From the NCBI GenBank assembly GCA_964527995.1, contig CAZGRP010000004.1, forward strand, positions 20,230 through 84,229: a stretch of DNA of 64,000 nt, written 5' to 3'. Under the pieces are notes generated by a model. That model had not been told where the DNA came from. It was given only the letters and a program-made list of their open reading frames with translations, and made no database searches. The translations under genes and the position numbers were made by a program. The stretch is from an uncultured Cytophagia bacterium (GTDB taxonomy: Bacteria > Zhuqueibacterota > Zhuqueibacteria > Oceanimicrobiales > CAZGRP01). Every line of letters begins with the position of its first letter. Positions within the stretch are counted from its first letter, which is position 1. Positions 5,357-60,258 of this stretch are shown here, one piece after another.

Positions 5357-5372
5357 TGGCACGCGGGTTGCA
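5357..5372 (+). promoter_or_regulatory. Sigma-54 (RpoN) -24/-12 promoter: TGGCACG-cggg-TTGCA
   Basis: Exact match to YTGGCACGrNNNTTGCW. GG at 5358-5359 and GC at 5370-5371 (12-nt spacing). It lies ~70 nt upstream of the first hsp20 start. Confidence 0.55.
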
Positions 5373-5446
5373 AAATGCAACTACGAAGGATCATGTTCAA
5401 CAGCATGGACGTGATCGACCTACGAGAGGTAAGGAGGTGAGTGGCA

Positions 5447-5893: not shown

Positions 5894-5989
5894 ACAGGGG
5901 CCGAGTGTGGTTGAGACGAACTCGAGAGGCTGAGTCGGCCTCCTGGGTTGCGGAGTCATTCCGAAGATCTGGCAAGGAGGTGATGTCCG

Positions 5990-6433
5990 ATGTTGGAAAG
6001 GTATGAGCCCGCCCTGGCTACGGAGCCGTTCGAGGGGCTCCGCACGATCCGCAGCCGGATCAATCGTCTGTTCAGTGAACTGTTTCCCGAGTTCGAGCGT
6101 ACCGAGGAGTGGTTCTATCCGACCTACGACATGATCGACACCAAGGACGAGGTCGTGCTCTTCGTCGAGCTGCCGGGGGTCGGCAAGAACGATTTCAAGC
6201 TGACCGTGAACAATGACATTCTGACCATCAGCGGCGAGAAGAGAAGGGTGGACATGCCCGAAGGGGCCAGCCGGCTGCGCAACGAAATCACCTACGGGAA
6301 TTTCAATCGGCAGATCCGGCTGCCCTATCCCGTCGATGCCGACATGATCAAAGCGGAGCTGCGCAACGGCATGCTGACCATCCACCTGCCCAAGAAGGAA
6401 GAGGTCAAGCCTAAGGAGATTCCGGTCAGCTAA
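5990..6433 (+). CDS. Hsp20/alpha-crystallin family small heat-shock protein (tandem paralog)
   Basis: Collinear with the previous protein (VELPGV, ELPYPVD, L..HLPK). RBS caaggaggtg before the ATG. Confidence 0.85.
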   Translation: MLERYEPALATEPFEGLRTIRSRINRLFSELFPEFERTEEWFYPTYDMIDTKDEVVLFVELPGVGKNDFKLTVNNDILTISGEKRRVDMPEGASRLRNEITYGNFNRQIRLPYPVDADMIKAELRNGMLTIHLPKKEEVKPKEIPVS

Positions 6434-6456
6434 CGAATGCCTGATCCTCGGTCAGT

Positions 6457-6511
6457 GCAGGCGGGCTTCCTTCCGGCGACAGTCGGATGGATGTCCCGCC
6501 TGTTTTTATTT
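6457..6511 (+). terminator. Putative rho-independent terminator of hsp20 operon
   Basis: Stem gcaggcggg (6457-6465) pairs with cccgcctg (6495-6502), followed by tttttattt (6503-6511). The loop is large. Confidence 0.45.
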
Positions 6512-6595
6512 GCTGCCAGGTCGGCGAGCGAACTTTCAGGCCTCATGCCTGGTTGTATTTCAACAGAGAGAAAACACGGTTGGTTGGTGAAGAGG

Positions 6596-8461
6596 ATGAG
6601 GCTGAAATCAAAAATTGCCATCATCTTCGTGTTGTTGGTGATTCTGCCGCTTGCCGCCGGGATCGTCGTGTCCTTGCACGCTCTCAGCGGCTATCTGTCT
6701 TTTCAGCAATATGCGGTGATTCGGCAGACGGCGGAGCAGCTCGACGATCTGATCGGTCTGGAGAAGGAGGACGTCCAGGCGATCGTCGAGGTGCTGAGTG
6801 GCACCCGTGCAGTGCGGCAGGCGGTGGCTGAACGCGACGTGAATCGGTTGCGCCTGCTGGCTCGAATCTATCAGCGTCTGGCACGTGCCGATATCGTCGA
6901 GTTTCGCGACACGGACGGCCGACTTCTTCTGCGTCGGGAGCGCCGCGGGGCTGAACTTACGCAAGATGTTCATCCCGGACCGTGGCGGGCGCCGGAGAGG
7001 CCCTCGGTTGATATTTATCCGGAGCGAGGCGAGGTGGTGATCCGGGCTACTTCGCCCGTTTTTTTCGCCGGCAAGCTGGTTGGCTCGGTGTCGGTCGCGG
7101 AGCGCCTGTCGCGCGAATTCATCGAGCGGTACAAGAGGGAGATGGGACTTGAGGTCGCCATCCTGGGGCGCAATCGCGTGCTCTACTCGACTCTGAAGGG
7201 ACTACAGTTGCAGGCCCTGCCGTTGGCCGCCATCGAGTCGGCGCGCAGACAGTCCTACGGCCGCACGCGGGTTTCTGGCAAGACCTATACCATGGCCGCC
7301 TACCCGTTGCTGGGCTCCGACGGACGCTATCAGGGCGCACTGCTTCTTTTTCAGATCGAGACCACGTTTCGAGCGGCAGTGGCGCGGGCGCGCCGGGCGA
7401 TTGCCCTGGCTGGAGTGCTCTCGCTTACCTACGCCCTGGGCGTTGGCTACGTGGCGACGCGGCGACTGCAGGCCCCGATTTTCGAGCTGCAACAAAAGAT
7501 GCATCAGGTGATGACGGGCAATTATGACGTCGAGGTGCGCGTCCGCACCTCGGATGAGTTCCGCGACCTCGCCGAAGGTTTCAACAGAATGTTGAACCAG
7601 ATCCGCCGGTCCCGAGAGCATTTGCGCATTCAGAACCAGCGACTGCGGGCTTTCGCCAGAGCCATGCAGCGCGAGCTGGACGTAGCCGGGCAGGTTCAGT
7701 CTCTGTTGATCCCGGAAGAGTACACCGACGACCGGGTCTCCGTCAGGGTGCAATACTTCCCGATGCTGCGGGTTGGTGGGGATTACGCTTATTTGCATAT
7801 GAGCGACGAAGGAGTCGGGTATTTCATCATCGCCGACGTGTCGGGGCATGGGGTAGCTGCCGCCCTTCTGATGAGCAGAGTCAGTGCCGAGGTTGAGAAT
7901 CTGGTGCGCAGCGACGCACCGATCGCTGATCTGATTTCGCATCTGAACCGTTTCATCTACGAAAACTTTTCTTCCACAGGGATGTACGTGACCTTCTTCT
8001 GTGCCCGTGTTCAGTTTCAGACGGGATGGATCGAGTATGGAAATGCTGGCCATCCGGCACAGTGGCTGTTTCGAGCCCGTGCTGACGAAGTCGTGGAGCT
8101 GCCTGCCCTGAACCTGCCGCTCGGTGCCTTCCCAGCGGAAACATTCGGCGAGCCCATGACGAAGACCGTTCCGTTCGAAGTCGGCGACCGCTTCTTTCTA
8201 TTCACCGACGGCATGTTCGAGGTCAGCGACCCCGAGGGGAACCCTCTCGGGCTCGGACGCCTGCGAGGGATTCTCGAGGAGGCTCTGAGACACTCCGAGG
8301 AGGTTCCCATCGAGTACGTGGTGAACGCCGTGAAGAAGTACAGCGGCGGCCGTTTCGAGGACGACGCGCTGTTCGTGTCGGTACGATTCCTGGGTGGGCC
8401 GGCGAGGCCGGAACCGGTGGCAGCGGCAGCGGCGGAGGCTGTCGGGGCAGAGAAGGTATGA
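6596..8461 (+). CDS. Membrane sensor protein-serine phosphatase, PP2C/SpoIIE family with HAMP linker (RsbU-like)
   Basis: Domain order: TM helix (IAIIFVLLVILPLAAGIVVSL), ~250-aa extracytoplasmic region, second TM, HAMP-like segment (DEFRDLAEGFNRMLNQI), then PP2C motifs (GGDYAY, IADVSGHGVAAALLMS, FLFTDGMFE). Start ambiguous: GTG 6587 or ATG 6596. Confidence 0.75.
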   Translation: MRLKSKIAIIFVLLVILPLAAGIVVSLHALSGYLSFQQYAVIRQTAEQLDDLIGLEKEDVQAIVEVLSGTRAVRQAVAERDVNRLRLLARIYQRLARADIVEFRDTDGRLLLRRERRGAELTQDVHPGPWRAPERPSVDIYPERGEVVIRATSPVFFAGKLVGSVSVAERLSREFIERYKREMGLEVAILGRNRVLYSTLKGLQLQALPLAAIESARRQSYGRTRVSGKTYTMAAYPLLGSDGRYQGALLLFQIETTFRAAVARARRAIALAGVLSLTYALGVGYVATRRLQAPIFELQQKMHQVMTGNYDVEVRVRTSDEFRDLAEGFNRMLNQIRRSREHLRIQNQRLRAFARAMQRELDVAGQVQSLLIPEEYTDDRVSVRVQYFPMLRVGGDYAYLHMSDEGVGYFIIADVSGHGVAAALLMSRVSAEVENLVRSDAPIADLISHLNRFIYENFSSTGMYVTFFCARVQFQTGWIEYGNAGHPAQWLFRARADEVVELPALNLPLGAFPAETFGEPMTKTVPFEVGDRFFLFTDGMFEVSDPEGNPLGLGRLRGILEEALRHSEEVPIEYVVNAVKKYSGGRFEDDALFVSVRFLGGPARPEPVAAAAAEAVGAEKV

Positions 8462-44827: not shown

Positions 44828-45685
44828 GTGGCAAAACTCACCAGTGGCAGTCGCAGTCGAAGTGAGCAGTCTCTCGAACGCTACCTCCAAGAAATTGGAG
44901 AAGTTCCACTCCTGACACCTGAGGAAGAGATTGAGCTGGCGAAGCGGATCAAGAAGGGGGACCACGAGGCACTTGAAAAACTCACCAAGGCCAACCTGCG
45001 GTTCGTGGTCAGCGTCGCCAAGCAGTATCAGAATCAGGGGCTTTCCCTGGGTGATTTGATCAACGAGGGCAACCTCGGCCTCATCAAAGCCGCCAACCGC
45101 TTTGATGAGACACGCGGCTTCAAGTTTATCTCCTATGCCGTCTGGTGGATCCGCCAGTCCATCCTCCAGGCCCTGGCCGAACAGTCCCGCGTGGTTCGGC
45201 TGCCGCTGAACCGCGTCGGCGCACTCAACAAAATCGGTAAGGCTCTGAGTGCGCTGGAACAGGAGTTCGAGCGCGAGCCTTCGGCGGCGGAGATCGCCGA
45301 TGAGTTGGACATGACGCCCTACGAGGTTTCGGACACCCTAAAGATTTCCGGCAAGCACCTTTCCCTCGATGCTCCCTTCAACCAGGACGAAGAGAGTCGA
45401 CTGCTCGACGTCCTGGCGAGCAATGAACTTCCCTCCCCAGATAACCGCCTGATGCGCGAGTCCCTCAAGATCGAGGTCGAACGCGCTCTGGCGAGTCTCA
45501 CCCCGAGAGAGGCGGAGGTCGTAAAACTCTATTTTGGTCTGGGTCGGGAACATCCCCTGACCCTCGAGGAAATCGGCGAGCGATTCAACCTGACGCGGGA
45601 ACGCGTACGGCAGATCAAAGAGAAGGCGATTCGCAGGCTTCGCCACGCCTCACGCAGCAAACCACTGCGGAGCTATCTCGGCTAG
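44828..45685 (+). CDS. RNA polymerase sigma-70-family factor, short RpoD-like (regions 1.2-4, no region 1.1)
   Basis: [18 protein letters not shown] (region 2), [10 protein letters not shown] (2.4), [25 protein letters not shown] (region 4.2). Confidence 0.85.
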
Positions 45686-47670: not shown

Positions 47671-48726
47671 ATGCTTGATGTCGGGTGTTTGCCGGGCCTG
47701 AGCGGCCTTTATCATCTTTCCAATGCGCGTACGCGGTCGGTATCGGCTGAGAATCCAACTGGGGAAAAGGGTGGAGGTGCGCGTGCCGAGCCGCAGGCCG
47801 GCAGTCCCGCCGCACGACTGGGGAAAGGCTGGAAGGTGCGGCCGTGTCTGGAGCACATCCCCGCTGGCGGAACAGTCACCCTCGCCGATCTGCGCGGTCC
47901 GGGGGTCATCCAGCATATCTGGATCACCACTGATGTGAAAGTCTATAGAGACGGTGTACTGCGGTTCTACTGGGATGAGGAGCCTCATCCTTCTGTGGAG
48001 GTACCGGTAGGCGATTTTTTCGCCAACGGGCATGGCATGCGGTACGGTGTAAATTCACTGCCGGTCTGCGTCAATCCCTCCGGCGGTTTCAACTGCTATT
48101 GGCCGATGCCTTTTCGCAAGCGTGCCCGTGTGACCTTCGAAAACCAGCATCGCGACGAACTCCCTTTTTTGTTCTATCAAATCACCTATGCGGAGACCGA
48201 CATCGGCGAGGCTGCGGCCACTTTCCATGCTCAATGGCGGCGTTCCCTGACATCGCGCCAGCGGCCCGAGCACGTCTTGGTGGATGACATCCGCGGCAAG
48301 GGCCACTACGTCGGCACGCATCTGTCATGGACACAGCTTTCAGACGGCTGGTGGGGGGAAGGCGAGTTCAAATTCTACATCGATGGCGACGAAGAGTATC
48401 CCACCATCTGCGGCACGGGCACCGAAGACTACTTCGGTGGCGCCTGGTGCTTCGGAGAGACCTATTCCACTCCTTTTCTGGGCTACCCGCTCTGGCGCAA
48501 GGAGCCAGGATCGGTTCCGAAGCATGCCATGTACCGCTGGCACATTCTCGATCCCATTCGTTTTGAGCGGGATCTGCGCGTTACCGTGCAGGCCCTCGGC
48601 TGGTGGCCCGATCATACGTTTCAGCCGCTGACTGACGACATCGCCTCGGTCGCCTACTGGTATCAGAGTGAGCCTCATGTGCCTTTTCCGCCGTTGCCAC
48701 CGCCACAAGTTCGCTGGCCGCGCTGA
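47671..48726 (+). CDS. DUF2961-like protein (possible GH172-family glycoside hydrolase)
   Basis: Motifs SAENPTGEKGGG, ICGTGTEDYFGGAW and HAMYRWH recalled from DUF2961. AGGAGG 8 nt before the ATG. Confidence 0.5.
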   Translation: MLDVGCLPGLSGLYHLSNARTRSVSAENPTGEKGGGARAEPQAGSPAARLGKGWKVRPCLEHIPAGGTVTLADLRGPGVIQHIWITTDVKVYRDGVLRFYWDEEPHPSVEVPVGDFFANGHGMRYGVNSLPVCVNPSGGFNCYWPMPFRKRARVTFENQHRDELPFLFYQITYAETDIGEAAATFHAQWRRSLTSRQRPEHVLVDDIRGKGHYVGTHLSWTQLSDGWWGEGEFKFYIDGDEEYPTICGTGTEDYFGGAWCFGETYSTPFLGYPLWRKEPGSVPKHAMYRWHILDPIRFERDLRVTVQALGWWPDHTFQPLTDDIASVAYWYQSEPHVPFPPLPPPQVRWPR

Positions 48727-48901
48727 CATAGCGTTCCCACCCGGGTGGAAAGCGGGGGATGCACCCAAAGAAGCCGGAATCCGGCGGTTTCTGTAGCAGC
48801 CAGTGGGGCGCTGGTAGACGCACTTCCAGGAGGTCCGAACTGCAGCCCTGCTGTGGGCGTAAGTGGACTGAGTGGCATCCTCAGAATCAAGGAATGGCAA
48901 A

Positions 48902-50686
48902 ATGCCGGCAAAAGAGGTGAAGGGAGCAACCAAGAGGAGAGCGAAGGCGGACCCAGACAAGGCCGAACTTGCCCGCTTGCGTCGAGAAAACCAGTTGTTG
49001 GCCAAGCGGGCGCGAGCGACCAGGCGTATGGCCGACATGATGTCGGCGACTATCCGGCAGCTCGAGGCCATCAACGACCTGAACAAGTATCTCGGCGCCA
49101 TTTGGGACCTGGACAAGATTTTCGCCGAAACCATCCGCCTGTTGCGCCAGCAGATTCCTGTGGACGCAGCCTGGTTCTTCCTTTGGGACAAGACGGAGGA
49201 GACACTTCGACTCCGCGCCCAATACGGCGGCGGCAACGGTCTCACGGCGGAACTGGACCCCACCGTTCAGAGTGTGGCCGGCATCATCGTTGGGCAAAGT
49301 AAGGTCGAAGCCGCGCGTGAAATCTCACTGGTCAATCAGTCGCTGGCCGAACGCCTGTCTCGCTCTCTCATGGCGCTGGCCCTTCGCTACAAGCAAACGG
49401 CAGTGGGGGCGCTGGTCCTGCTGAGCCGGGAAGGAGCCATCTTTTCCCGTGCAGATCGGAGATTCAGTGAGAAGGTGGCCAACCAGGTGACTCTGGCGAT
49501 CCAGCGTGGCTTGTTGATCACCAAGTTCATCGATAAGAACGAGCGGCTGGCAGCGGCAAACGAAGAGCTGAATCGCGCCAAGGAACGCCTCAGCGAATGG
49601 AACCGCAATCTCGAGCAGGCCGTCGAAGAGCGGACTCACGAGCTGCGCACCTGGCACGATTTCTTGCAATCGGTCATCGACGGCTTGAGTGACGCCATTC
49701 TGATCGTCAACCGTGACCACCAGGTTCTGTTTGCCAACAGGGCCGCCAAACGCCTGGCAGAGATCGCGGCCGATTCTCTGGGCCGGTGCTACAACCGCGA
49801 CGCCGATGACCCCTGCCATTGCACGGATTGCCCCACAGCTCGCACTTTCTCGACCGGTGAGATTGGTCATACCTCCTACAGCGCTGTCGGTGGCGACGGG
49901 ATGCAGCGCTACTACGAGATGTGGACGTATCCGATCCGAGGCAAGAGCGGTGTGGTCGACCGTGTTATCGAAATCGTGCGCGATGTGTCGGAGCAGAAGT
50001 GGCTTGAGGCCCAGCTTGTGCAGGCGGAAAAGATGGCCTCCCTGGGCGAAGTGGCCAGCGGCATCGCTCATGAGATTCGCAACCCTCTCACCGGAATCAA
50101 ACTGGGCTTGAACGTCCTCAAGAATGAGCTGGACGGTGATTCAACCAAGCTGCAAGTGATGGAGCGCATCGCCCGCGACATCGACATGCTCGATCGCGTT
50201 GTGACCCAGATGCTCGAGTTTACGCGCCAGCGCGAAGTTCGCAAGGAGAGCTGCCAGCTTCTCGACGTGCTGGATAAGGCCACCTTCTACGTCAGCAAAC
50301 AAGCCCGTGACCACGGCATCGTGATTCACCGGGAGTTCAGCCCGACGCCGCCGATTCAGGTGGACCCGATTCTTATCCAGCAAGTTTTCTTGAATCTCCT
50401 GCTGAACGCAGTTCAGGCTATGCCATCGGGCGGCGACCTCTACCTTTCGGTCCGGACTCGGCATGCGCCGGACGGGATTGAAGTCGTCATCCGGGACACC
50501 GGCCCGGGGATTCCGGCGGCCAACAGGGCTCGCATCTTTCAACCGTTCTTTTCCACCAAACCGGGGGGAACCGGTCTGGGTGTACCGATTTCGGAACGCA
50601 TCGTCCGCGACCACGGGGGGCAGTTGCGCATCGATAGTGAGCCTGGCCGGGGTACTTCGGTCATCATCTTTCTACCCGAACAATGA
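48902..50686 (+). CDS. Cytoplasmic sensor histidine kinase (GAF-PAS-HisKA-HATPase_c), NtrB-like
   Basis: H-box EVASGIAHEIRNPL. N, G1, G2 boxes (LLLNAVQAM, RDTGPGIP, GTGLGVPI). No TM segments. The ORF begins at GTG 48872. Confidence 0.8.
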   Translation: MPAKEVKGATKRRAKADPDKAELARLRRENQLLAKRARATRRMADMMSATIRQLEAINDLNKYLGAIWDLDKIFAETIRLLRQQIPVDAAWFFLWDKTEETLRLRAQYGGGNGLTAELDPTVQSVAGIIVGQSKVEAAREISLVNQSLAERLSRSLMALALRYKQTAVGALVLLSREGAIFSRADRRFSEKVANQVTLAIQRGLLITKFIDKNERLAAANEELNRAKERLSEWNRNLEQAVEERTHELRTWHDFLQSVIDGLSDAILIVNRDHQVLFANRAAKRLAEIAADSLGRCYNRDADDPCHCTDCPTARTFSTGEIGHTSYSAVGGDGMQRYYEMWTYPIRGKSGVVDRVIEIVRDVSEQKWLEAQLVQAEKMASLGEVASGIAHEIRNPLTGIKLGLNVLKNELDGDSTKLQVMERIARDIDMLDRVVTQMLEFTRQREVRKESCQLLDVLDKATFYVSKQARDHGIVIHREFSPTPPIQVDPILIQQVFLNLLLNAVQAMPSGGDLYLSVRTRHAPDGIEVVIRDTGPGIPAANRARIFQPFFSTKPGGTGLGVPISERIVRDHGGQLRIDSEPGRGTSVIIFLPEQ

Positions 50687-52107
50687 GCGCATCGAGTCAC
50701 AAGCAGATCCTGATCGTCGACGACGAAGACAACATCCGCGAGTTCCTTTCGGTCTCCTTCGTGCGCGAGGGCTTCATCGTCCATACCGCCGAGTCGGGTG
50801 CCGTGGCGGAGGAGCTGTTTCAGGCATACGTCCCGGACATCGTGATCCTTGATGTTCGTCTGCCGAACCAGCACGGGCTGGATGTGTTGCGACGCATGCT
50901 CGAATTCAATCGCGACACCATGATCATCATGATCACGGCGTACGGCGACATCAAAACGGCTGTGGAGGCGATGAAGGCAGGGGCTGCGGACTACATCAGC
51001 AAGCCGTTCGACTTTGAGGAGATCCAGCTGGCCGTGGAAAGGGCGCTCCATGTTCAGGCCCTCAAGAACAAGCTCGCCGTTCTGGAGTCGCAGTCTGCCT
51101 CCTACGCCGACATGATCGGTGTCAGCGATCGCATGCGCCAGGTTTTTGCCACCATCGAGCGTGTGGCCGAAACGCCTGACTCCACGGTGCTCATCATGGG
51201 CGAGAGTGGCACTGGAAAGGAACTGGTAGCCCGGGCGATCCACAAGAGAAGCAGGCGGCACGAGAATCCTTTTGTGGCTGTCAACTGTTCCAGCTTGAAG
51301 GAACAGTTGCTGGAGAGCGAGCTGTTCGGTCATGAACGCGGCGCTTTCACCGATGCCCGGGAGCGAAAGAGGGGTCTCTTTGAGGTCGCTGACGGCGGCA
51401 CGATCTTCCTGGACGAAATCGGCGACATGGACGTCCGTTTGCAGTCCCAGCTTCTGCGCGTGCTGGAGGAGAGGGTTTTCCGGCGGGTCGGTGGCACCCG
51501 CGACATTCCCGTGGACGTACGGGTGATCGCCGCAACCAACAAGGATCTCCGGCAGGAGGTGGACGCCGGCCGGTTTCGCGACGATCTTTTCTATCGCCTC
51601 AGCGTGGTGCCTGTGGCGATTCCACCCTTGCGCGAGCGCAAAGAGGACGTACCTCCTCTGGTACGGTACTTCATCGAGGAGTTCAATCGCAAGTTGAGCC
51701 GGTCGATCCGCGGCATCACACCGGACGCGCTGAATGCGCTGATCATCTACGAATGGCCTGGAAACGTGCGCGAACTTCGAAATGTTATCGAAAGGATCGC
51801 CATTCTTGAGAATCCCGAGTTGATCCGCCTGGAGCACCTTCCGGTGGAGATCGCTCGCCGCGATGAGAGTGGATCCGGAGCGGCCGATGCCCTGGTGCAA
51901 CTGCCCTACCATGAAGCCAAGGCCCAGATGCTGGAAACGTTCGAGCGCCGTTATCTGCTCGGGTTGTTGCATCGTTATGGCGGCAACGTCTCCAAATGCG
52001 CCGAAGTAGCCGGTATCGATCGCAGTAGCTTTCATCGGCTACTGAAAAAGCACAGGATCGACTCAACGGCGTTTCGTTCCAGCACGACCGAACGGACTCT
52101 TCAGTGA
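50683..52107 (+). CDS. Sigma-54-dependent response regulator (REC-AAA+-HTH, NtrC family)
   Basis: REC domain with [20 protein letters not shown] Walker A. GAFTDA GAFTGA-like sigma-54 contact motif. C-terminal Fis-type HTH. Confidence 0.85.
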
Positions 52108-52114
52108 GGCCACA

Positions 52115-52134
52115 CTGTGGCGCTGGCGCCACAG
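52115..52134 (+). terminator. Short perfect hairpin after sigma-54 regulator gene (no U-tract)
   Basis: ctgtggcgc-tg-gcgccacag. Confidence 0.3.
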
Positions 52135-52207
52135 ACCGTAACTCGTGAGGAAACAAGGTGGAGTGTTTCTGGTGTTGTAGGCACGCCACAGTCGTCTGAA
52201 TATTTCG

Positions 52208-52236
52208 TTGACAATGGCCTTTTCCTCACTTTTATT
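52208..52236 (+). promoter_or_regulatory. Sigma-70-type promoter TTGACA-N17-TTTATT upstream of ferredoxin-sigma operon
   Basis: -35 at 52208-52213 and -10 at 52231-52236. Confidence 0.45.
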
Positions 52237-52391
52237 TCGCTGTTTTCGCCCCATTCTAGCCCATCACAGGCGGCCCTACGCAAGGAGCGTGGTACGGTGA
52301 TTGCCTTCCTTCCAGTGATCAATCATGGAGAGTGCTGGTCCGCGATTCTCCGGTAGAAGACGAGCATCTTTACAAGGGAGGTGAACGTATC

Positions 52392-52670
52392 ATGACCTAC
52401 ATCATTGCCGAGCCATGCGTGGGCGTTCGCGATCGGGCCTGCGTGGACGTGTGTCCTGTGGACTGTATCTATGAGGTCGAGGACACGCAACTCGAACCGG
52501 ATGACGAAGCCTACAAGGAAATGCTGTACATCCATCCGGAGGAGTGCATCGACTGTGGCGCCTGCGAGCCCGAGTGCCCGGTTGAAGCCATCTTCCCCGA
52601 GGACGAGGTCCCGGAGAAGTGGGAAGCCTACATCGACTACAACTACAAAGCCTTTGGGTTGAGCCGTTGA
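52392..52670 (+). CDS. Ferredoxin (two-cluster, 7Fe/8Fe-type)
   Basis: MTYIIAEPC...[10 protein letters not shown]...[21 protein letters not shown]. Confidence 0.8.
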
Positions 52671-52714
52671 CGTTGGTGATGTTACGGACGACAATCCGGG
52701 CGAGGTGAGGTTTT

Positions 52715-53575
52715 GTGGCAAGAGGTCAGCGGGGAAGCCGCGAGTATATCGACGAAGGATTCCGCCGCTACATGCGGGAGATCCAGGATTTTCCGGTTCT
52801 CACTCGGGCCGAGGAACAGCTTCTGATCCGCAAGGCCAAAGAGGGCGATCGGAAGGCGGCGGAACGGCTGATTGTCAGCAATTTGCGCTTCGTGGTCACG
52901 ATTGCCAATGAGTACAAGGATCGCGGAGTGCCGATGCTGGACTTGATCAGCCAGGGCAACCTCGGCCTGATAAAGGCGCTGGAGACGTTCGATCCGTCCA
53001 GAGGGCTGAAGTTCATCACGTATGCCGTCTGGTGGATCCGGCAGGCGATGCTGCAAGCCATCGCCGATCACTCCAGGGTGGTGCGAATACCCCAGAACCG
53101 ACTTGCCACCATGCGTCGGATTGAAATGGCCCGCCGAGAGCTTCAAAAGGTACACCAGCGCGACCCTGTGACCGAGGAAATCGGCCAGTCGCTTGGAATG
53201 GGTTCCGACGAAGTCCTCGATACCCTTCGGCTCATCCACACTGAAGTCTCCCTCGAGCAGACGCTCCAGGGCGAAAGCGATAGCCAGCTGAAGGAGCTGA
53301 TCGCCAATCCAACGTCACCTCGTCCGGATGATCGCGTCAACGCTGAATCTTTGGGACAGGATTTGCAGGACGCTTTGAGTCTGCTCAGCGACCGCGAGGC
53401 GACAATCTTGCGGCTTTACTATGGTTTGGAAAACGAGCAGGCACACTCTCTCGGCACGATCGGAGAGCGTTTTAATCTGTCACGGGAGAGAATACGGCAG
53501 ATACGCGATCAGGCCTTGAGGAAGCTCCGCCTTTCGGCGGACATCATCGCCCGCCTCCGAGAATACCTCGGCTGA
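52715..53575 (+). CDS. RNA polymerase sigma-70-family factor, short RpoD-like paralog (~50% identical to 44828-45685)
   Basis: [56 protein letters not shown] start 44 nt after the ferredoxin stop. Confidence 0.85.
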   Translation: MARGQRGSREYIDEGFRRYMREIQDFPVLTRAEEQLLIRKAKEGDRKAAERLIVSNLRFVVTIANEYKDRGVPMLDLISQGNLGLIKALETFDPSRGLKFITYAVWWIRQAMLQAIADHSRVVRIPQNRLATMRRIEMARRELQKVHQRDPVTEEIGQSLGMGSDEVLDTLRLIHTEVSLEQTLQGESDSQLKELIANPTSPRPDDRVNAESLGQDLQDALSLLSDREATILRLYYGLENEQAHSLGTIGERFNLSRERIRQIRDQALRKLRLSADIIARLREYLG

Positions 53576-53587
53576 CCCTCGCGGATT

Positions 53588-53875
53588 TCACTTCTTCTTG
53601 AACAGTTCTTCCAGCTTGCGCCGAGCCTGCTGCTGGCGGTCGGAAGGAGCAGGGTGCGGCGTTTTGGCATGCGGACGGAAGTAGTCACAGAAGTTGCCGG
53701 TCTCTTTGTCGCTGACCCAGGCGGCTTGCGGCTCACGGCACTGGTTGTGGGCGTTCGGGTCGTAGAAGTCACAATTGAGGCACACGTGCAGGTAGGCAGT
53801 GCAATGGGGGCAGGTCTCCTGCCGGCCAGGCTTTCCCGTGAGCGGGACTTCAGTCCCGCAGCGGTAGCAGATCAT
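53588..53875 (-). CDS. Cys-rich zinc-ribbon protein, hypothetical
   Basis: CYRCG...CPHC...CLNC...C...C, eight Cys. Basic C-terminus. Convergent with the sigma gene. Confidence 0.55.
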   Translation of the reverse strand: MICYRCGTEVPLTGKPGRQETCPHCTAYLHVCLNCDFYDPNAHNQCREPQAAWVSDKETGNFCDYFRPHAKTPHPAPSDRQQQARRKLEELFKKK

Positions 53876-53923
53876 CCCGCCTTCCGTGCGCAAGGTTGCG
53901 CGTCTTATGGATGGGGTAGAGTT

Positions 53924-53964
53924 GGCGCGCGCCAGGGCCTATAAAAGCCTGAAGGGCGCGCCCT
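53924..53964. promoter_or_regulatory. Dyad element: two GGCGCGCC palindromes flanking a TATAAAA-containing spacer
   Basis: ggcgcgcgcc (53924-53933) and gggcgcgccc (53954-53963). It lies in the region just upstream of the zinc-ribbon gene and upstream of the anti-sigma gene. Confidence 0.3.
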
Positions 53965-54149
53965 AAATCGGACACGCCCCTCGAAGCGCGCACGGGATAC
54001 AACACTCTAAGTAGCTGGCAAACAAAATCCGCAAGCCCTTGCGCCTTGAGCTGGTCTGCGTCGGTGGATCTTCCGCGTCTCGACGCTGACTTTGCGGCGC
54101 AAAAGCGTGTGCTAATATAGCTAACAAAAATCATCCTGTCAAGTGGAAA

Positions 54150-54869
54150 ATGGAGTTTTTGGCTCTTACCGACAAACCTTCTGCCAATCGTCCCGTAAAC
54201 AAAAAAATGTCTGAAGTCTTTCCTCACCAGAGCAAATCTCTTTCTGCCTCTGGAAAGCGACCGACACGCGCTTGGGAGGACAGCGGCCTTGAGGGGGACG
54301 GTTCTGATGTTGCACTTCCGAGTTTGTGGACCAAGAACAGCCAGGCGCTCAGCGTGAAATGGAGTTTGTGCTTTCTACCAGGGGACTTTAGCAATTTTTC
54401 CGAGACGGTGCAGATCAGCTTTCCCAGCAGGCTGGACTACGTGCCCGTAGTCGTCTCCTACCTGACCGAAGTCGCCGCCCGTCTCAAGCTGATCGATGCG
54501 GATGAATCGAACTTCCCGGTCGTGGTAGATGAGGCCCTGACCAACGCCGTAGTCCACGGCAACCGTAGCGACCACGGCAAGCTCGTGCACGTCAGGGCAA
54601 CGTTTACGCCGCACAGGCTGGAGGTCGCGGTGCGCGACGAAGGGCAAGGGTTCGACTATGATCTCTTGCCGAACCCGCTCGAAAAGGACAATCTGCACCG
54701 TACCCACGGCAGAGGTATCTTCTTGATTCGCTCCCTGGTGGATGAACTTCGCTTCAATGAAGCTGGGAATGAGATCATCCTCGTGCAGACTGTCAGACAA
54801 GATGCAGCGAGGAAGCGCCAGTCGAGCCACCCCCATTGTTCTCCCGCCCGAGACTCAGAAACCCCTTGA
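54150..54869 (+). CDS. RsbW/SpoIIAB-type anti-sigma factor serine kinase (HATPase_c_2)
   Basis: VDEALTNAVVHGN (N-box), VRDEGQGFD (G1), GRGIFLIRSLVDEL (G2). Confidence 0.65.
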   Translation: MEFLALTDKPSANRPVNKKMSEVFPHQSKSLSASGKRPTRAWEDSGLEGDGSDVALPSLWTKNSQALSVKWSLCFLPGDFSNFSETVQISFPSRLDYVPVVVSYLTEVAARLKLIDADESNFPVVVDEALTNAVVHGNRSDHGKLVHVRATFTPHRLEVAVRDEGQGFDYDLLPNPLEKDNLHRTHGRGIFLIRSLVDELRFNEAGNEIILVQTVRQDAARKRQSSHPHCSPARDSETP

Positions 54870-54894
54870 CATTGTTAAAATTCTTGAATAATAT
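54866..54894 (+). promoter_or_regulatory. Sigma-70-type promoter TTGACA-N17-TAATAT overlapping anti-sigma stop codon
   Basis: -35 at 54866-54871 and -10 at 54889-54894. Confidence 0.5.
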
Positions 54895-54900
54895 GTAACG

Positions 54901-55098
54901 CCTTGGCGAGGCCATAACGCCCCTCTCTCAGTGATTCGATGTGGCTTTGATTTGGCTTCGCCTGGGTCGTCGGCGAGTACAGATGAGTGGACTTTGCCCC
55001 TGCGGGAGGAGCCCTGTGGGTGCAGAGAAGCAGATGTTTCCTTTCGGGAACAAAGCAGGAGGCATAGCACGAAGCACGTTATGCCTCCTTTCTTTTTG
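54901..55098 (+). ncRNA. Putative ~200-nt noncoding RNA or leader bounded by promoter and intrinsic terminator
   Basis: Promoter at 54866-54894. Terminator aggaggcat (55057-55065) pairs with atgcctcct (55081-55089), followed by ttcttttt. No convincing ORF or RBS in between. Confidence 0.3.
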
Positions 55099-55138
55099 AT
55101 CCGGTGCAAGAAACTGTGGAAACTCGCGGATAGCCCCG

Positions 55139-56707
55139 ATGTCCTTCCCCGTTGCAGCCCGGTCCGACCTGCACGAAGCAGGAGTGCCCTTTGTGCCGGA
55201 GGCGCAAACGTGGGGAGCGCGGATTCTGGCGCTCCTCCCCTCTTCCGACCACTACCTCGTCGATCTCCTGGCAGGCCAGCACTGGAGTGTCGAGGCAGTG
55301 GCCGAGGCTGCATCGCTACTTGAACACGCCCGTCGCCACCAGACCGACTTGATTGTCGTCGACCTGCCGAGCCGATGCGACTGGGCGTTCGATCTCTGCC
55401 AGCGTCTCAAAGAGGATCCGGGGCTGCGTTGGGTGCCGGTGCTGGTCCTGGCAGAGGGACCACGCCAGAGGTATCTCGAACTGCTGACAGTACTGCCGGT
55501 GGAGGATTGTCTGGGCAAGCCGTTCGAGCTGGACGAACTGCTGGCCCGGATGAGCCGTCTTCTGCTGCGGCAGAACCTGCATCGTGCCACCGCCTTACTG
55601 CATGATCTGATCGACTTCGCTCACGTCATGGCCATCATCCTTGATACCAAAGGTCATGTGCGCGCCATCTCTCCCGCTGCCGCCAAGTTCCTCGGGCATA
55701 GCCAGGAGGAGGCTGTTCAGCTCAGGTCTGGCGATATTTTCTCGCCAGATTGCGCTGGCGACTTCGGGCAGCTCGTGCGCACGGCTCGAGCAGGTCGGCA
55801 GGTCAACGGACGGAGGTCACGTCTGATTGACTGTGCTGGCAGAGAGTTGGCCGTGGAGATCGACGCTGCGCCTCTTCCGACGTCCGACGGAGCGATGCAT
55901 GTGGCTCTGATTTTTCGAGACATCTCCTCGCGAGTTCGCGCCGAGAAGGAGGCGGAGGAATATACCCGGCTGCTCCAACAGGCCGTCGAAGAGCGCACTC
56001 GCCGGCTGGTGGAAACGCAGAATCAACTGATCATGTCCGAGAAAATGGCCGTTGTCGGTCAGCTCGCTGCCGGCGTTGCCCACGAAATCCGAAACCCGCT
56101 CAACATTATCGGGATGTCCGCTTATTACCTCGGCAAAGTGCTCGGAGTCCAGGCCGGTAAAGTCGGGGAGCATCTTGAGATCATCCAGGAGGAGATCACC
56201 AGGGCCCAGAAAATCATCGAGAACCTCCTGGATTTCTCGCGGCAGTCCAGCGTAAAGCGTGAAGCTGTGGACCTGAATGGATTGATCCACCTTACCCTGT
56301 CGCTGTTGCAGAAAGAGATTCAGAGAAGCGATATCGAGGTTGTGGCAGATCTGGGGGACGTCCCTCCATGCTACGCCAACAGTGACGATCTGAAACAGGT
56401 GCTCCTCAACCTGATTCTGAATGCTCGGGACGCGATGCCCAATGGCGGCGTTCTCAGCTTGAAGACACGGGCGAACGGCTCCGACTGGGTCGTCTGTGAG
56501 TTACGCGATACAGGCGTCGGCATCTCTACCAGCGACATTCCGAAGATCTTCAATCCGTTTTTCACCACAAAGCTGGAACGCAAGGGCACCGGACTTGGTC
56601 TGGCAATCGTGCGTTCAGCGATCGAACGCAACAGTGGCCAGGTGGAAGTGAAGTCTCATGTGGGAAAGGGTACGTTGTTCATCATCAAACTACCAGCGGC
56701 GAAGTAG
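55139..56707 (+). CDS. Cytoplasmic histidine kinase with N-terminal receiver-like domain (REC-PAS-HisKA-HATPase_c)
   Basis: REC-like DLIVVDL...VPVLVLAE...GKPFELDELLARM. H-box LAAGVAHEIRNPL. N/G boxes LILNARDAM, RDTGVGIS, GTGLGLAI. Confidence 0.8.
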   Translation: MSFPVAARSDLHEAGVPFVPEAQTWGARILALLPSSDHYLVDLLAGQHWSVEAVAEAASLLEHARRHQTDLIVVDLPSRCDWAFDLCQRLKEDPGLRWVPVLVLAEGPRQRYLELLTVLPVEDCLGKPFELDELLARMSRLLLRQNLHRATALLHDLIDFAHVMAIILDTKGHVRAISPAAAKFLGHSQEEAVQLRSGDIFSPDCAGDFGQLVRTARAGRQVNGRRSRLIDCAGRELAVEIDAAPLPTSDGAMHVALIFRDISSRVRAEKEAEEYTRLLQQAVEERTRRLVETQNQLIMSEKMAVVGQLAAGVAHEIRNPLNIIGMSAYYLGKVLGVQAGKVGEHLEIIQEEITRAQKIIENLLDFSRQSSVKREAVDLNGLIHLTLSLLQKEIQRSDIEVVADLGDVPPCYANSDDLKQVLLNLILNARDAMPNGGVLSLKTRANGSDWVVCELRDTGVGISTSDIPKIFNPFFTTKLERKGTGLGLAIVRSAIERNSGQVEVKSHVGKGTLFIIKLPAAK

Positions 56708-56710
56708 ACG

Positions 56711-58081
56711 ATGACGGCTGTTGCGCCACGGATCTTGCTCGTCGATGACGAGGCCAATTTCCGCAAGACGGTGGTCGATCTCCTCAAGCTCGAGGGATAC
56801 GAGGTCTTTACGGCACCGAGCGGAGCCGACGCCCTGGCGATTCTCGAAGATGTCACGGTAGACATTGTCATCACCGATGTGCGCATGCCTCGAATGTCAG
56901 GCGTGGAGCTGTTGCAGCGTCTCCGCCACGCGCATCCCGACGTGGATGTAATCGTGCTCACCGGCTACGGATCGATTCATGACGCGGTGAGAACCATCAA
57001 GATGGGCGCCTACAACTACGTCATGAAACCGGTGAATTTTGAGGAGCTGGCGCGAGACGTTCGTGACATCCTTCGGATGCGGAATCGGCTGCCCGAAGGA
57101 TCAATCGCCTCGGATTCCGCTGCAGACAGCATTGTTGGCAGCAGCCCGCCGATCCGGCACGTCCGGCATCTGATCGACCGGTTCGCGGCATCGGAACTCC
57201 CTGTGCTCATCGAAGGAGAAAGCGGAACCGGCAAGGAGCTGGTTGCCAATGCCATCCATGCGCGCAGTCCCCGAGCCGAGAATCCGTTCGTACGAATCAA
57301 CTGTGCCGCGCTTCCGGAACCACTGACCGAAAGCGAGCTTTTTGGCTACGAACGCGGCGCCTTCACGGGGGCGACCCAGCAGAAGAAGGGAAAAATCGAG
57401 TTGGCGAGCGGCGGAACGCTCTTCCTGGATGAGATCGCCGAGATGCCGCTGGGTACCCAGGCGAAGCTTCTGCGCGCCATCGAACAGCAGGAAATCGAGC
57501 GACTCGGTGGTACGGAGGTCATCAAAGTGGATGTGCGCCTGATCGCCGCAACGAACCAGAACCTGCGCGAGCTGGTGCAACGCGGGGAGTTTCGCAAGGA
57601 CCTGTACTACCGCATCAACGCCGTGTCCATCAAGACGCCGCCGCTTCGCTCGATGCCGGAAGACATTCCGCGTCTGGCCAATTATTTTCTCGACAAACAT
57701 TGCGCTGAGGTCGGAAAGCCGGTTCCCCGGCTCGGACGCGAGGTGATGCAGATTCTTCTCTCTCATCCCTGGCCTGGCAATGTGCGTGAGCTTGCAAACG
57801 TCATCCGCAGGGCGGCTATCCTGTGCGACGGCGGCGAACTGAATCCCGGACATCTTCCCGCAGAACTCGCGGAGCCGCCGGCCGAGGTTGCCGAAGACGA
57901 TGCCAGAACGTTGTCCCTGGATGAGCTTGAGCGACGTCATATCGCTCGCGTGCTGAGATTGACGGCGGGTAACAAGAATGCAGCGGCCCGATTGCTCAAT
58001 ATCCACCGCGATACGCTCTACCGCAAGATACGCAAGTACAACCTGTTATCTGATACCGGAGGAACACGCCAACCGGAGTGA
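56711..58081 (+). CDS. Sigma-54-dependent response regulator (NtrC family)
   Basis: REC (DVRMP), [22 protein letters not shown]-terminal HTH. Confidence 0.85.
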   Translation: MTAVAPRILLVDDEANFRKTVVDLLKLEGYEVFTAPSGADALAILEDVTVDIVITDVRMPRMSGVELLQRLRHAHPDVDVIVLTGYGSIHDAVRTIKMGAYNYVMKPVNFEELARDVRDILRMRNRLPEGSIASDSAADSIVGSSPPIRHVRHLIDRFAASELPVLIEGESGTGKELVANAIHARSPRAENPFVRINCAALPEPLTESELFGYERGAFTGATQQKKGKIELASGGTLFLDEIAEMPLGTQAKLLRAIEQQEIERLGGTEVIKVDVRLIAATNQNLRELVQRGEFRKDLYYRINAVSIKTPPLRSMPEDIPRLANYFLDKHCAEVGKPVPRLGREVMQILLSHPWPGNVRELANVIRRAAILCDGGELNPGHLPAELAEPPAEVAEDDARTLSLDELERRHIARVLRLTAGNKNAAARLLNIHRDTLYRKIRKYNLLSDTGGTRQPE

Positions 58082-58454
58082 TATACGATGGGAAAGAGGG
58101 TACAAGCTCAAACGACGTGGCTCCACAAGCGGCCGCCGCCGTAGGCCTGTGATGCCGAGGTTTAGGATGGACCCCCCATTTTCAGCCTGCTCGCCCGCCC
58201 GGCGAGGGCCCCAGGCGTCGGAAAGCACGGCATCTGCCGCATTTTACGACATCCTGGCGGTATCGTCCTAGTCTTTTGGAAAGCAATGGCTTAGATGGTA
58301 CTGCCTTCATTTGGAAGTCGTAATTTGTCGGCCTGAGGTTCGCTTCATTGGATCGTTACCCTCCATTTCAGGCGCTGTTTGGATGGACCTAAAAGACTGA
58401 AACCACAGCGCTTACCGGACCTTCCTCGACATAGGATTTGTCAGCGATTTGACC

Positions 58455-58471
58455 TTGGTACGTCTGTTGCA
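58455..58471 (+). promoter_or_regulatory. Sigma-54 -24/-12 promoter: TTGGTACG-tctg-TTGCA
   Basis: GG 58457-58458, GC 58469-58470 (12-nt spacing). One mismatch to TGGCACG. ~70 nt upstream of the receiver gene ATG 58539. Confidence 0.5.
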
Positions 58472-58538
58472 GAGGTGCACTGGCCTTTTGGGTGCTGACT
58501 TCCTCCGGGCGCAAGCCCGACCGACAGGGCGTACGGGT

Positions 58539-59087
58539 ATGAATCTGCTTTTGATCGATCCCGAGCGGCGTACGCTCGAGGTCTATCGTGACATCTTTGA
58601 AATATGGGGGTACGACGTGACGGCCGTCCGCACCGGCTCGGAAGCGGCAAAGGCGTTTTCCGAGGCAGCCTTTGATCTTGTCATCCTGGATGACAACCTG
58701 CCGGACACGCCGGGGGTCGAACTGATTCGGGCGATGAAGACGCAAGCGCCGGCGGTTCCGCTGATTGTGATGACGGCCAACTCGACGGTGCGTGGAGCGG
58801 TGAGCGCCATCCGTGCGGGCGCCGACGACTATTTGGCCAAGAGCACCGATGTGGAGGGTGTTCGGCACTGCCTCCAAGAGACCCTCGGGCAGCGCCCCGA
58901 AAACTCGCAGTCAGCCAAACTGCAGGCAGAGATTCTGACGAACCTTCGCCGGGTTCGCGATCATTTGGATGAGGTGATCGGATTTATCGAGCAGGCAAGC
59001 CGCCGAAGGGCCGGGCAGAGCGACACGGGGGCCTCGAGGCCGGCCCAGACAAATCGCCACGCGGAGCGTGAAGATACTGCACCTTGA
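58539..59087 (+). CDS. Stand-alone response-regulator receiver protein with ~70-aa C-terminal tail
   Basis: LLLIDPE, LVILDDNLPD (acceptor Asp), VMTANST, YLAKS. The ORF begins at TTG 58449. Confidence 0.7.
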   Translation: MNLLLIDPERRTLEVYRDIFEIWGYDVTAVRTGSEAAKAFSEAAFDLVILDDNLPDTPGVELIRAMKTQAPAVPLIVMTANSTVRGAVSAIRAGADDYLAKSTDVEGVRHCLQETLGQRPENSQSAKLQAEILTNLRRVRDHLDEVIGFIEQASRRRAGQSDTGASRPAQTNRHAEREDTAP

Positions 59088-59166
59088 TGGCGGAAGCAAG
59101 GAGGTGTTTCTGCCACGGATGAGCTGACACGTTCTGACTCAGCGAGGAAGGTTGTCTCACGGCGAC

Positions 59167-60258
59167 ATGCGTCTGCAACCAGAAACCTGGGGAATCGCAA
59201 GCGGTGATGCGGGAAGTGGGAAGACGACCGTAGCTGCCTGCCTTGGGGCCATCCTGCAACAGCAGGGGCTGCCCGCCCTCATCCTTGATGCGGACCTTAG
59301 AGGCGAGAATTACCTGCTCTCTGCTTCGGTGAGCAGCGAACCGGACGCTCTTTCTGCCAGAGTTCTTTCGGAAGGCTATCTCTTGATCTTGCGCCGCTCG
59401 CTCGGCGACGACTTCGATCGTACCATACGCGGGCTTGAGTCTATCGTGCCGCGAAGGAAGCGATCGGCGCTTCAGCTCTTGCTTGATTTTGGAACAGGAT
59501 CATCGGAAAAATATGCGGAGTTTTTTCCGCTGCTGTCCAATCCGGTGGTTGTGGCGGATCGCACCGGAGAGTCGGTCGCGAAGGCATTGTCCTTTGCTTA
59601 TCGGGCTGTTCTCCGCTGTATCGGCCGCCGACTGCGTCGATATCCAGAAGTCACCCGTATGATTCGGCAGGCTTTGACGCGCGAAGCGGAAGGCTCTGTT
59701 ACTCGGTTGAGTGAGATCGCTTACCACCTGATTGGTGTGAATCGTTATGCGGCTGAGGTGGCTCGATCGATCATTCGTGCTTATCATCCCAAAGTCGTGC
59801 TGAATCGCTCCGAAGAGGTGCAGGAACAGAAGAAGCTGCGACGGCTGTTGGCGCAGGTCCGCCTTGAAACCGATCTGGATATCTCCTTCGGCGGCACTCT
59901 TGCCAACGAGCCTCGACTTGCGGAGGTCGCGGCGCAGGCGACGAAACTGTCGCTCGACGATCCCGAAAGCGAATACGCCATCTGGCTGGCAAGAGAGCTG
60001 GCCCGGAAGCTGCAAGGAGAGAGCCGAATCGATCCACAGGGGGCGCCGCCGACGAAGCCGACCACCCGGCGCAGAAGGTGGCTCGGAGGGCTACTAGGAT
60101 CGGTAGCGATGTTCTGGACGGTATCGCCCAAAGCCGTCAGCCTGCCACCAGGCCGCCGAGCGGGGTTGACCACCGCCGGGCAGACGATTCTCGGAAGCCG
60201 ACCTTTCGATGTTACGCTTTCCCGCTATGTCAGAAAGGGGAATCGCACGATCGTGTAA
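59167..60258 (+). CDS. P-loop ATPase of the MinD/BY-kinase (CpsD/Wzc-like) superfamily, no C-terminal Tyr cluster
   Basis: Walker A GDAGSGKTT. Walker A' ALILDADLRGENY (DxDxR, BY-kinase-like). Start ambiguous (TTG 59152 or ATG 59167). Confidence 0.55.
   Translation: MRLQPETWGIASGDAGSGKTTVAACLGAILQQQGLPALILDADLRGENYLLSASVSSEPDALSARVLSEGYLLILRRSLGDDFDRTIRGLESIVPRRKRSALQLLLDFGTGSSEKYAEFFPLLSNPVVVADRTGESVAKALSFAYRAVLRCIGRRLRRYPEVTRMIRQALTREAEGSVTRLSEIAYHLIGVNRYAAEVARSIIRAYHPKVVLNRSEEVQEQKKLRRLLAQVRLETDLDISFGGTLANEPRLAEVAAQATKLSLDDPESEYAIWLARELARKLQGESRIDPQGAPPTKPTTRRRRWLGGLLGSVAMFWTVSPKAVSLPPGRRAGLTTAGQTILGSRPFDVTLSRYVRKGNRTIV

Follow-up and report, generated by a model that had tools for sequence, protein, structure and literature searches.

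Background

Cascades in which sigma-54 acts on the gene of an alternative sigma factor are a known regulatory design, and the closest described case is the Hk2-Rrp2-RpoN-RpoS pathway of Borrelia burgdorferi, in which sigma-54 directly drives the RpoS gene (PMC2940757, PMC11109971). A different mode of control is seen in the partner-switching systems of the RsbV-RsbW-SigB and SpoIIAA-SpoIIAB-SigF type, and in the Rsb network of Chlamydia trachomatis an RsbW homologue targets the primary-type σ66 (PMC4552016). Here we describe a regulatory region, positions 48902-58081 of a 64-kb stretch of contig CAZGRP010000004.1 from an uncultured bacterium (this whole stretch of 64,000 nucleotides is termed the window below), which contains potential components of both kinds of system. 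Two histidine kinase genes, each followed by a gene for an NtrC-type regulator, bracket genes for a ferredoxin (fdx), an RpoD-like sigma factor (Sig2), an 8-Cys small protein (ZnR) and an RsbW-like kinase (ASK). An earlier sequence-only reading interpreted this region as a redox- or energy-sensing partner-switch acting on Sig2, combined with enhancer control through sigma-54. Our analysis favors, with a probability of roughly 55%, a block of adjacent but separately wired modules, in which the first kinase (HK1) and its regulator (NtrC1) would act through sigma-54 on an fdx-sig2 operon, while ZnR and ASK would be only neighbors.

Results and discussion

Gene content of the region

An open reading frame (ORF) map of the window, combined with Pfam and NCBIfam scans, recovered all eight genes that had been listed earlier, at the same positions:

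48902..50686, plus strand: HK1, a soluble GAF-PAS histidine kinase (Pfam GAF_3, PAS_4, HisKA, HATPase_c)
50683..52107, plus strand: NtrC1, an enhancer-binding response regulator with REC, sigma-54 AAA+ and HTH_8 domains (Pfam)
52392..52670, plus strand: 7Fe-type, FdxA-like ferredoxin of 92 aa (Pfam Fer4/Fer4_7)
52715..53575, plus strand: Sig2, 286 aa, group-2-like and paralogous to the short primary sigma (Pfam regions 1.2, 2, 3, 4)
53588..53875, minus strand: ZnR, an 8-Cys small protein of 95 aa without a Pfam family, convergent with sig2
54408..54869, plus strand: ASK, an RsbW/SpoIIAB-like serine kinase core (HATPase_c_2) within the ORF 54150-54869
55139..56707, plus strand: HK2, a soluble REC-PAS histidine kinase with HisKA-HATPase_c (Pfam)
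56711..58081, plus strand: NtrC2, with REC, sigma-54 AAA+ (GAFTGA) and HTH_8 domains (Pfam)

The start of HK1 at 48902 is also the start called on an identical contig (L001). The domain architectures previously assigned to the two kinases and their NtrC-type partners were borne out; as neither HK1 nor HK2 shows a convincing hydrophobic or membrane segment, both look cytoplasmic, and both share the H-box AHEIRNPL. The two NtrC proteins score 240 and 241 bits against Sigma54_activat, with Response_reg and HTH_8 domains in each, but are only 42% identical to one another and hence are not products of a recent duplication. Two related metagenomic lineages (L083 and L084) share the order fdx-sig2-ZnR-ASK-HK2-NtrC2, although given their close kinship neutral synteny would be a sufficient explanation for this.

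The PAS domain of HK1 displays a C-x8-C-x-C-x2-C cluster (49787-49831). We considered a role for this cluster in redox sensing and dropped it, because only two of the four Cys remain in a homologue of 80% identity; a looser pattern of three Cys is common in the PAS-family relatives of HK1.

A predicted sigma-54 cascade onto the ferredoxin-sigma operon

To locate potential sigma-54 sites we scanned the window with the pattern TGGYAYN5TTGC, using 100 shuffles as control. Four matches were recovered against 0.33 expected, a number that none of the 100 shuffles reached. Three of them, at 5357, 52290 and 58456, are intergenic, correctly oriented and shortly upstream of genes, with an NtrC-type gene immediately preceding those at 52290 and 58456; the fourth is antisense within a SpoIIE gene and is probably a chance match. 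The site relevant to Sig2 and the repeats preceding it, which were identified by a repeat search, are as follows:

52290..52304, plus strand: sigma-54 (-24/-12, GG-N10-GC) promoter TGGTACGGTGATTGC found as a pattern match, 87 nt ahead of the fdx start and directly downstream of NtrC1
52115-52134, unstranded: palindrome CTGTGGCGC-TG-GCGCCACAG, a candidate pair of upstream activating sites
52184-52192, unstranded: third half-site CGCCACAGT, the candidate region as a whole spanning 52115..52192

Within the proximal part of the NtrC1-fdx spacer of L084, which has otherwise diverged, no block other than the element TGGTACGGTGATTGC is well conserved. The palindrome is perfect and stands at a typical enhancer distance from the fdx promoter, and at the half-site positions L084 has GCAACAC/GCAACAG, changed in concert. 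These repeats are plausible NtrC1 binding sites. The 44-nt gap between fdx and sig2 on a common strand fits their co-transcription, as had been supposed earlier. With a conserved -24/-12 element between NtrC1 and the ferredoxin gene, the enhancer control of Sig2 put forward by the sequence-only reading is very probable.

Under the reading that we favor, HK1 would sense a cytoplasmic signal and phosphorylate NtrC1, which, bound to the GCCACAG repeats 100-175 bp upstream, would activate the sigma-54 polymerase at 52290. This promoter would drive a two-gene operon, so that the 7Fe ferredoxin and Sig2 are made together, and Sig2 would redirect RNA polymerase to a regulon of its own. Judging by the ferredoxin, rhodanese and SufE genes that accompany its relatives from KSB1-type bacteria, this regulon may concern Fe-S, sulfur or redox homeostasis. 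HK2 and NtrC2 would form a separate module driving the 58456 promoter and the REC, ParA-like and GNAT genes beyond it. ZnR and ASK appear to be lineage-specific neighbors with promoters of their own, for which we found no functional tie to Sig2.

Several observations weigh against this reading. The sigma-54 contact loop of NtrC1 (residues ~218-223) reads GAFTDA, also in the L084 orthologue, where NtrC2 has the canonical GAFTGA, and activity of NtrC1 with this loop is assumed. No rpoN gene is present in the 64-kb window, and the cascade as a whole is predicted from sequence, its expression and binding steps being putative. A weak sigma-70-like match (9/12) between fdx and sig2 means that sig2 may also be transcribed alone. 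No sigma gene was seen close to the ferredoxin gene in any of 80 metagenomic loci that encode relatives of this ferredoxin, five of them 74-87% identical to it. Finally, ASK and ZnR have kept their positions in three lineages despite divergence (ASK 44-51% identical over the ORF, ZnR 62% in L083), so a lineage-specific functional link of these two genes could exist.

The non-canonical loop also bears on another account, namely that HK1/NtrC1 and fdx-sig2 are merely juxtaposed, with a different enhancer-binding protein acting at the promoter and the island as a whole kept by neutral synteny within a single family of organisms. This account gains from the fact that synteny of the whole island is known only from three fairly close lineages, and from the absence of an NtrC gene near the KSB1-type sigma-ferredoxin loci. 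On the other hand, enhancer-binding proteins commonly act on an adjacent promoter, a correctly oriented -24/-12 element follows both NtrC genes, and the palindromic repeats lie at the usual distance of upstream activating sites and vary in concert in L084. We consider mere juxtaposition unlikely.

Sig2 defines a small clade of paralogues of the short primary sigma factor

A second sigma factor of the same general type is encoded some distance upstream in the window:

44828..45685, plus strand: Sig1, probable primary sigma of the short FCB type, 285 aa, followed by an M23 peptidase gene

Sig1 and Sig2 were earlier described as RpoD-like paralogues of about 50% identity; the paralogy holds, but the measured identity over the full length is 45%. 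Both proteins are ~285 aa long and lack region 1.1. A short primary sigma of this kind is known from Bacteroidota, where it was reportedly described by Vingadassalom and colleagues in 2005. Alignment shows common -10/-35 recognition segments (YAVWWIRQ and RERxRQI) in Sig1 and Sig2, with differences at clade-specific positions. In NCBIfam scans Sig2 falls below the RpoD, RpoS and SigB/F/G cut-offs, its best matches being the RpoD and RpoS models: it scores 233 against the RpoS equivalog TIGR02394 (cut-off 378.7), 231.9 against NF004207 (cut-off 394) and 108.9 against the SigB/F/G model TIGR02980 (cut-off 234).

A search of 5.8 billion proteins recovered only three close homologues of Sig2 (85-91% identity), followed by a steep fall to ~50%. 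In a neighbor-joining tree of the 119 best Sig2 matches, Sig2 groups with these three and with seven KSB1-type proteins in a clade of 11 members, marked by the signature GLKFITYAVWW, RxPQNRL and ALETFD. The other matches in this tree resemble Sig1 (median identity to Sig1 71%, up to about 86%), and JGI or NCBI annotate part of them as 'primary sigma factor' or RpoD/SigA. We therefore regard Sig1 as the probable housekeeping sigma, of the short FCB type. Sig2 would be a divergent, group-2-like paralogue of a Sig1-type primary sigma. The phylogeny that the sequence-only reading had proposed as a check thus places the two sigma factors in separate clades, one primary-like and the other group-2-like.

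The ferredoxin is the conserved companion of the Sig2 clade

The ferredoxin contains the motifs Cys-x7-Cys-x3-Cys-Pro and Cys-x2-Cys-x2-Cys-x3-Cys-Pro, which are predicted to bind a [3Fe-4S] and a [4Fe-4S] cluster respectively and whose Cys are invariant. Its best relatives of solved structure are 7Fe ferredoxins, namely Thermus 1H98 (E=2.5e-27) and Mycobacterium 2V2K, while its NCBIfam scores against the FdxA equivalogs do not reach the cut-offs (101.5 vs 125). We examined the gene context of 10 of the 11 Sig2-clade members and found a gene for this same 7Fe ferredoxin at most 2 kb from the sigma gene and on the same strand in nine, in three different gene orders:

fdx→sigma: the window lineage, including L083, whose contig begins within the ferredoxin gene, and L084
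sigma→fdx: L085/L086, L096 and L178
sigma→rhodanese→SufE→fdx: L087, L088 and L089
sigma→rhodanese, the contig ending in the rhodanese gene: L177, the tenth member, in which no ferredoxin is visible

The window ferredoxin is 98% identical to its counterpart in the close relative L084 and 79-87% identical to the ferredoxins neighboring the KSB1-type Sig2 homologues, across lineages whose sigma factors share only ~50%. That the linkage persists through three gene orders points to a functional relationship, and, as judged from gene context, the ferredoxin is the sole evolutionarily conserved partner of Sig2. Literature searches returned no description of a sigma-ferredoxin pair of this kind, and the conserved pairing appears to be modestly novel.

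The control of this pair differs in the KSB1-type loci. There the sigma gene is preceded by a sigma-70-type promoter and then by the palindrome GTGAGT-N4-ACTCAC:

L085:9866-9881, L086:9866-9881 and L087:5661-5676: exact GTGAGT-N4-ACTCAC, upstream of the sigma gene

A second, imperfect copy apparently lies downstream of it, with near-matches in L088/L089 upstream of the sigma gene, and in L089 a divergent gene of the Rrf2 family stands upstream of the sigma gene. This suggests Rrf2-type, perhaps Fe-S-sensing, repression of the KSB1-type sigma-rhodanese-SufE-ferredoxin operon. The operator GTGAGT-N4-ACTCAC is absent from the 64-kb window. With NtrC1 and sigma-54 here and a sigma-70 promoter with a palindrome there, a single output module would thus be placed under different inputs by lineage.

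These observations could also be accommodated by a closer relationship, in which the ferredoxin is a dedicated modulator of the Sig2 clade that reports redox or Fe-S status, for example by binding Sig2 or by being required for its activity. Ferredoxin and sigma would then constitute a two-protein sensor-effector unit, itself under different inputs by lineage (NtrC1/sigma-54 as against a sigma-70 promoter with palindrome, and the Rrf2 gene in L089). Such a role is consistent with the linkage outlasting changes of gene order in every sufficiently long Sig2-clade locus examined, and with the ferredoxin being far more conserved than the sigma factor. However, the 74-87% identical ferredoxins lack a nearby sigma gene in five of five metagenomic loci, which suggests a general-purpose ferredoxin, next to whose gene the sigma clade has stayed, rather than a dedicated one. 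Moreover, our literature searches found no precedent for such modulation, and the linkage is equally well explained if the ferredoxin belongs to the regulon of the sigma factor. A dedicated modulator is accordingly a doubtful proposition in our estimate. Some metagenomic contigs without a nearby sigma gene contain this ferredoxin type twice in tandem (L099:924-1605 and L100:2129-2807).

The RsbW-like kinase and the 8-Cys protein

The assignment of ASK as a kinase of the RsbW/SpoIIAB type is upheld by a score of 95 bits against Pfam HATPase_c_2 (PF13581) and by B. subtilis RsbW (6M36, E=2.3e-12) as the closest PDB entry; its score against the RsbW equivalog, 59.6, falls short of the cut-off of 145. 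From ETVQ(I/L)SFPS onward the sequence is conserved in L083 and L084. The sequence-only reading took ASK to be the anti-sigma of Sig2, with the ferredoxin and/or ZnR feeding redox state into a partner-switch on top of the sigma-54 control. The intact N, G1 and G2 boxes of ASK, its relationship to B. subtilis RsbW and the conservation of the order fdx-sig2-ZnR-ASK in three lineages are compatible with this, as is the reported control of a primary sigma by an RsbW homologue in Chlamydia (PMC4552016). A gene for a dCache-HAMP-SpoIIE (PP2C) phosphatase (6437-8461) shows that the organism has partner-switch parts, though this gene lies 46 kb from ASK and nothing ties its product to the kinase.

Other evidence speaks against such a switch. 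ASK is not co-transcribed with sig2, because it has its own upstream region and because the convergent ZnR gene and a promoter region of ~500 nt intervene. The nearest relatives of ASK beyond its own lineage show 36-45% identity, and in two of the three contexts examined they adjoin a STAS gene, as in the Bryobacteraceae-type relatives, while in the third the next gene encodes an unrelated outer-membrane protein; none of the three lies within a sigma operon. A STAS antagonist, the search for which had been suggested along with the partner-switch, was not detected among the window ORFs of at least 40 aa in a local hidden Markov model and phmmer search of limited sensitivity, which used approximate SpoIIAA and RsbV queries and two actual STAS sequences from the loci L090 and L093. 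Sig2 itself is not of the SigB/F/G type (108.9 vs 234).

ZnR belongs to a family without a Pfam model, which is characterized by eight invariant Cys, a conserved CREPQA motif and an invariant C-terminal LFKK, and which is represented in at least 570 genome loci from many phyla (Acidobacteriota, Syntrophales, KSB1, Binatia, Bdellovibrionota and others). We surveyed the neighbors of ZnR in the best 80 of these loci, with flanks of up to 8 kb on each side, and found a Sig2-like gene, a window-type ferredoxin or an RsbW-like kinase in none of the 80, and a Sig1-like gene in one. No recurrent partner emerged from the 80 loci either, the most frequent neighbors being a ClC-like channel (13/80) and an M50-like protease (10/80). 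We also examined ZnR as a potential ZAS anti-sigma domain and rejected this: it lacks the H-x3-C-x2-C motif, the family having H30-x-C32-x2-C35 instead, and its AlphaFold2 model (pLDDT 78) is mostly non-helical with a single C-terminal helix. Foldseek comparison of this model with the PDB gave only matches with E>2 (zinc ribbons, HiPIP and BSS small subunits).

The Sig2-clade loci outside the window lineage, which are of the KSB1 type, contain neither ASK nor ZnR. Thus, of the unit of ferredoxin, sigma, zinc-ribbon protein and anti-sigma kinase whose co-conservation had been proposed, the ferredoxin stands (9/10 loci), whereas ZnR (0/80) and the kinase, both missing from the KSB1-type loci, do not. 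The sequence-only reading had itself named a lack of co-conservation as an outcome that would speak against it, and this is what we find for ZnR and ASK, but not for the ferredoxin. With no STAS protein found in 64 kb, a kinase outside the sigma operon, and neither ZnR nor the kinase co-conserved with Sig2, a redox- or energy-sensing partner-switch is improbable and would be viable only as a lineage-specific, STAS-less novelty. At least as improbable is the bolder proposal that the ferredoxin-sigma pair is an unrecognized redox- or Fe-S-responsive module of KSB1/Calditrichota-like bacteria, in which the 7Fe ferredoxin directly gates the sigma and which has here gained two further regulators, an 8-Cys protein and an RsbW-type kinase that works without STAS, and been rewired from Rrf2-type repression to activation by sigma-54 and NtrC.

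We hence return to the reading of separately wired modules, under which ZnR and ASK are neighbors of the cascade, and note several features around these two genes. The stop codons of sig2 and ZnR are 12 nt apart (window 53573-53590), and similarly close in L083 and L084; a terminator would not fit between them, so the transcripts of the two genes must overlap, or each must end within the coding region of the other gene. Two elements precede ZnR:

54142..54114, minus strand: conserved sigma-70-type promoter TTGACA-17-TATATT, pointing towards ZnR
53943-54008, minus strand: non-coding block of 66 nt upstream of ZnR, 97% identical in L084 and 91% in L083

The block comprises a 13-bp GC-rich hairpin followed by a U-run, while its flanks and even the adjacent coding sequences have diverged; none of the 80 other ZnR loci contains it. 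A small RNA or an attenuator-type leader is a possible interpretation of this block. A direct repeat in the upstream region of ASK (54146, 54356) was set aside as a chance occurrence, its second copy being kept in neither L083 nor L084.

The putative HK2-NtrC2 module and other features of the window

The remaining intergenic sigma-54 matches and associated elements are the following:

58456..58471, plus strand: second sigma-54 promoter TGGTACGTCTGTTGCA, downstream of NtrC2 and 68 nt before the ATG at 58539
58539..59087, plus strand: REC-only response regulator, encoded by the gene nearest behind that promoter
5357: sigma-54 promoter TGGCACGCGGGTTGC, upstream of two hsp20 genes (5441-5893 and 5990-6433)
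54866..55098 region, plus strand: strong sigma-70-type promoter match TTGACA-17-TAATAT, its -35 box overlapping the ASK stop codon

The REC-only gene is followed by genes for a CbiA/ParA-like ATPase and a GNAT protein (Acetyltransf_6). The hsp20 pair runs directly into the SpoIIE phosphatase gene described above, together with two genes for CBS-pair proteins, and 5357-8461 looks like a sigma-54-dependent stress operon with a phosphatase of the partner-switch type. Between ASK and HK2, a terminator-like hairpin with a U-tract (55055-55098) follows the TTGACA-17-TAATAT promoter by ~190 nt and precedes HK2 by 40 nt. Promoter and hairpin are both conserved in L083, with diverged sequence between them, which suggests either that expression of HK2-NtrC2 needs read-through or that 54866-55098 holds a small RNA gene. 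An Rfam scan of 48000-59500 gave no match at E≤1, indicating that the conserved leaders of the region are not known RNA families. Elsewhere in the window there is a gene for a protein with a T9SS-type C-terminal domain, consistent with an FCB-related organism.

Implications and comparison with known systems

If the cascade from HK1 through NtrC1 works as predicted, this uncultured FCB-related lineage would offer a second case, phylogenetically remote from Borrelia, in which an RpoD-like alternative sigma is turned on directly by sigma-54. A further outcome is the definition of a small clade of sigma factors that have a 7Fe ferredoxin as their constant partner in the genome, often joined by rhodanese and SufE; this company gives a concrete hypothesis for the regulon, namely Fe-S, sulfur or redox homeostasis, and the clade offers a potential example of a single output module under different inputs across lineages. 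In practice, co-conservation should be established before an RsbW-like kinase or a Cys-rich small protein encoded beside a sigma gene is taken for an anti-sigma partner.

The window resembles the RsbV-RsbW-SigB and SpoIIAA-SpoIIAB-SigF systems in having a stand-alone HATPase_c_2 kinase with RsbW as its best match of solved structure; a SpoIIE/PP2C phosphatase is encoded elsewhere in the window, but nothing ties it to this kinase. Unlike in those systems, no STAS gene was detected near the kinase, which lies outside the sigma operon; the sigma factor is group-1/2-like, and kinase and sigma are not co-conserved. The Chlamydia Rsb network likewise differs in having RsbV antagonists and an RsbU phosphatase, neither of which was found beside the window kinase.

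With the 7Fe ferredoxins of Thermus (1H98) and Mycobacterium (FdxA, 2V2K) and with Azotobacter FdI, the window ferredoxin shares both cluster-binding Cys motifs, but it is distinguished from them by an insertion of ~12-14 residues between the motifs and by the linkage to a sigma gene in the Sig2 clade. Sig1 and Sig2 match the short primary sigma of the FCB group in their length of ~285 aa, the lack of region 1.1 and the retention of the recognition segments. The Sig2 clade stands apart from it as a small group (11 of the 119 sequences), with its own signature and with genes that consistently adjoin a ferredoxin gene.

The closest parallel is with the Borrelia cascade, which shares with the window a gene for a soluble PAS-type kinase beside that of an NtrC-type regulator, and a -24/-12 promoter driving an RpoD/RpoS-like sigma. 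In contrast to Borrelia, the NtrC1 of the window carries GAFTDA, and its cascade is a prediction from sequence. The sigma factor placed under this control is, moreover, not a proteobacterial or spirochaetal RpoS (233 vs 378.7) but a short paralogue of the FCB-type primary sigma, and it is predicted to be co-transcribed with a 7Fe ferredoxin.

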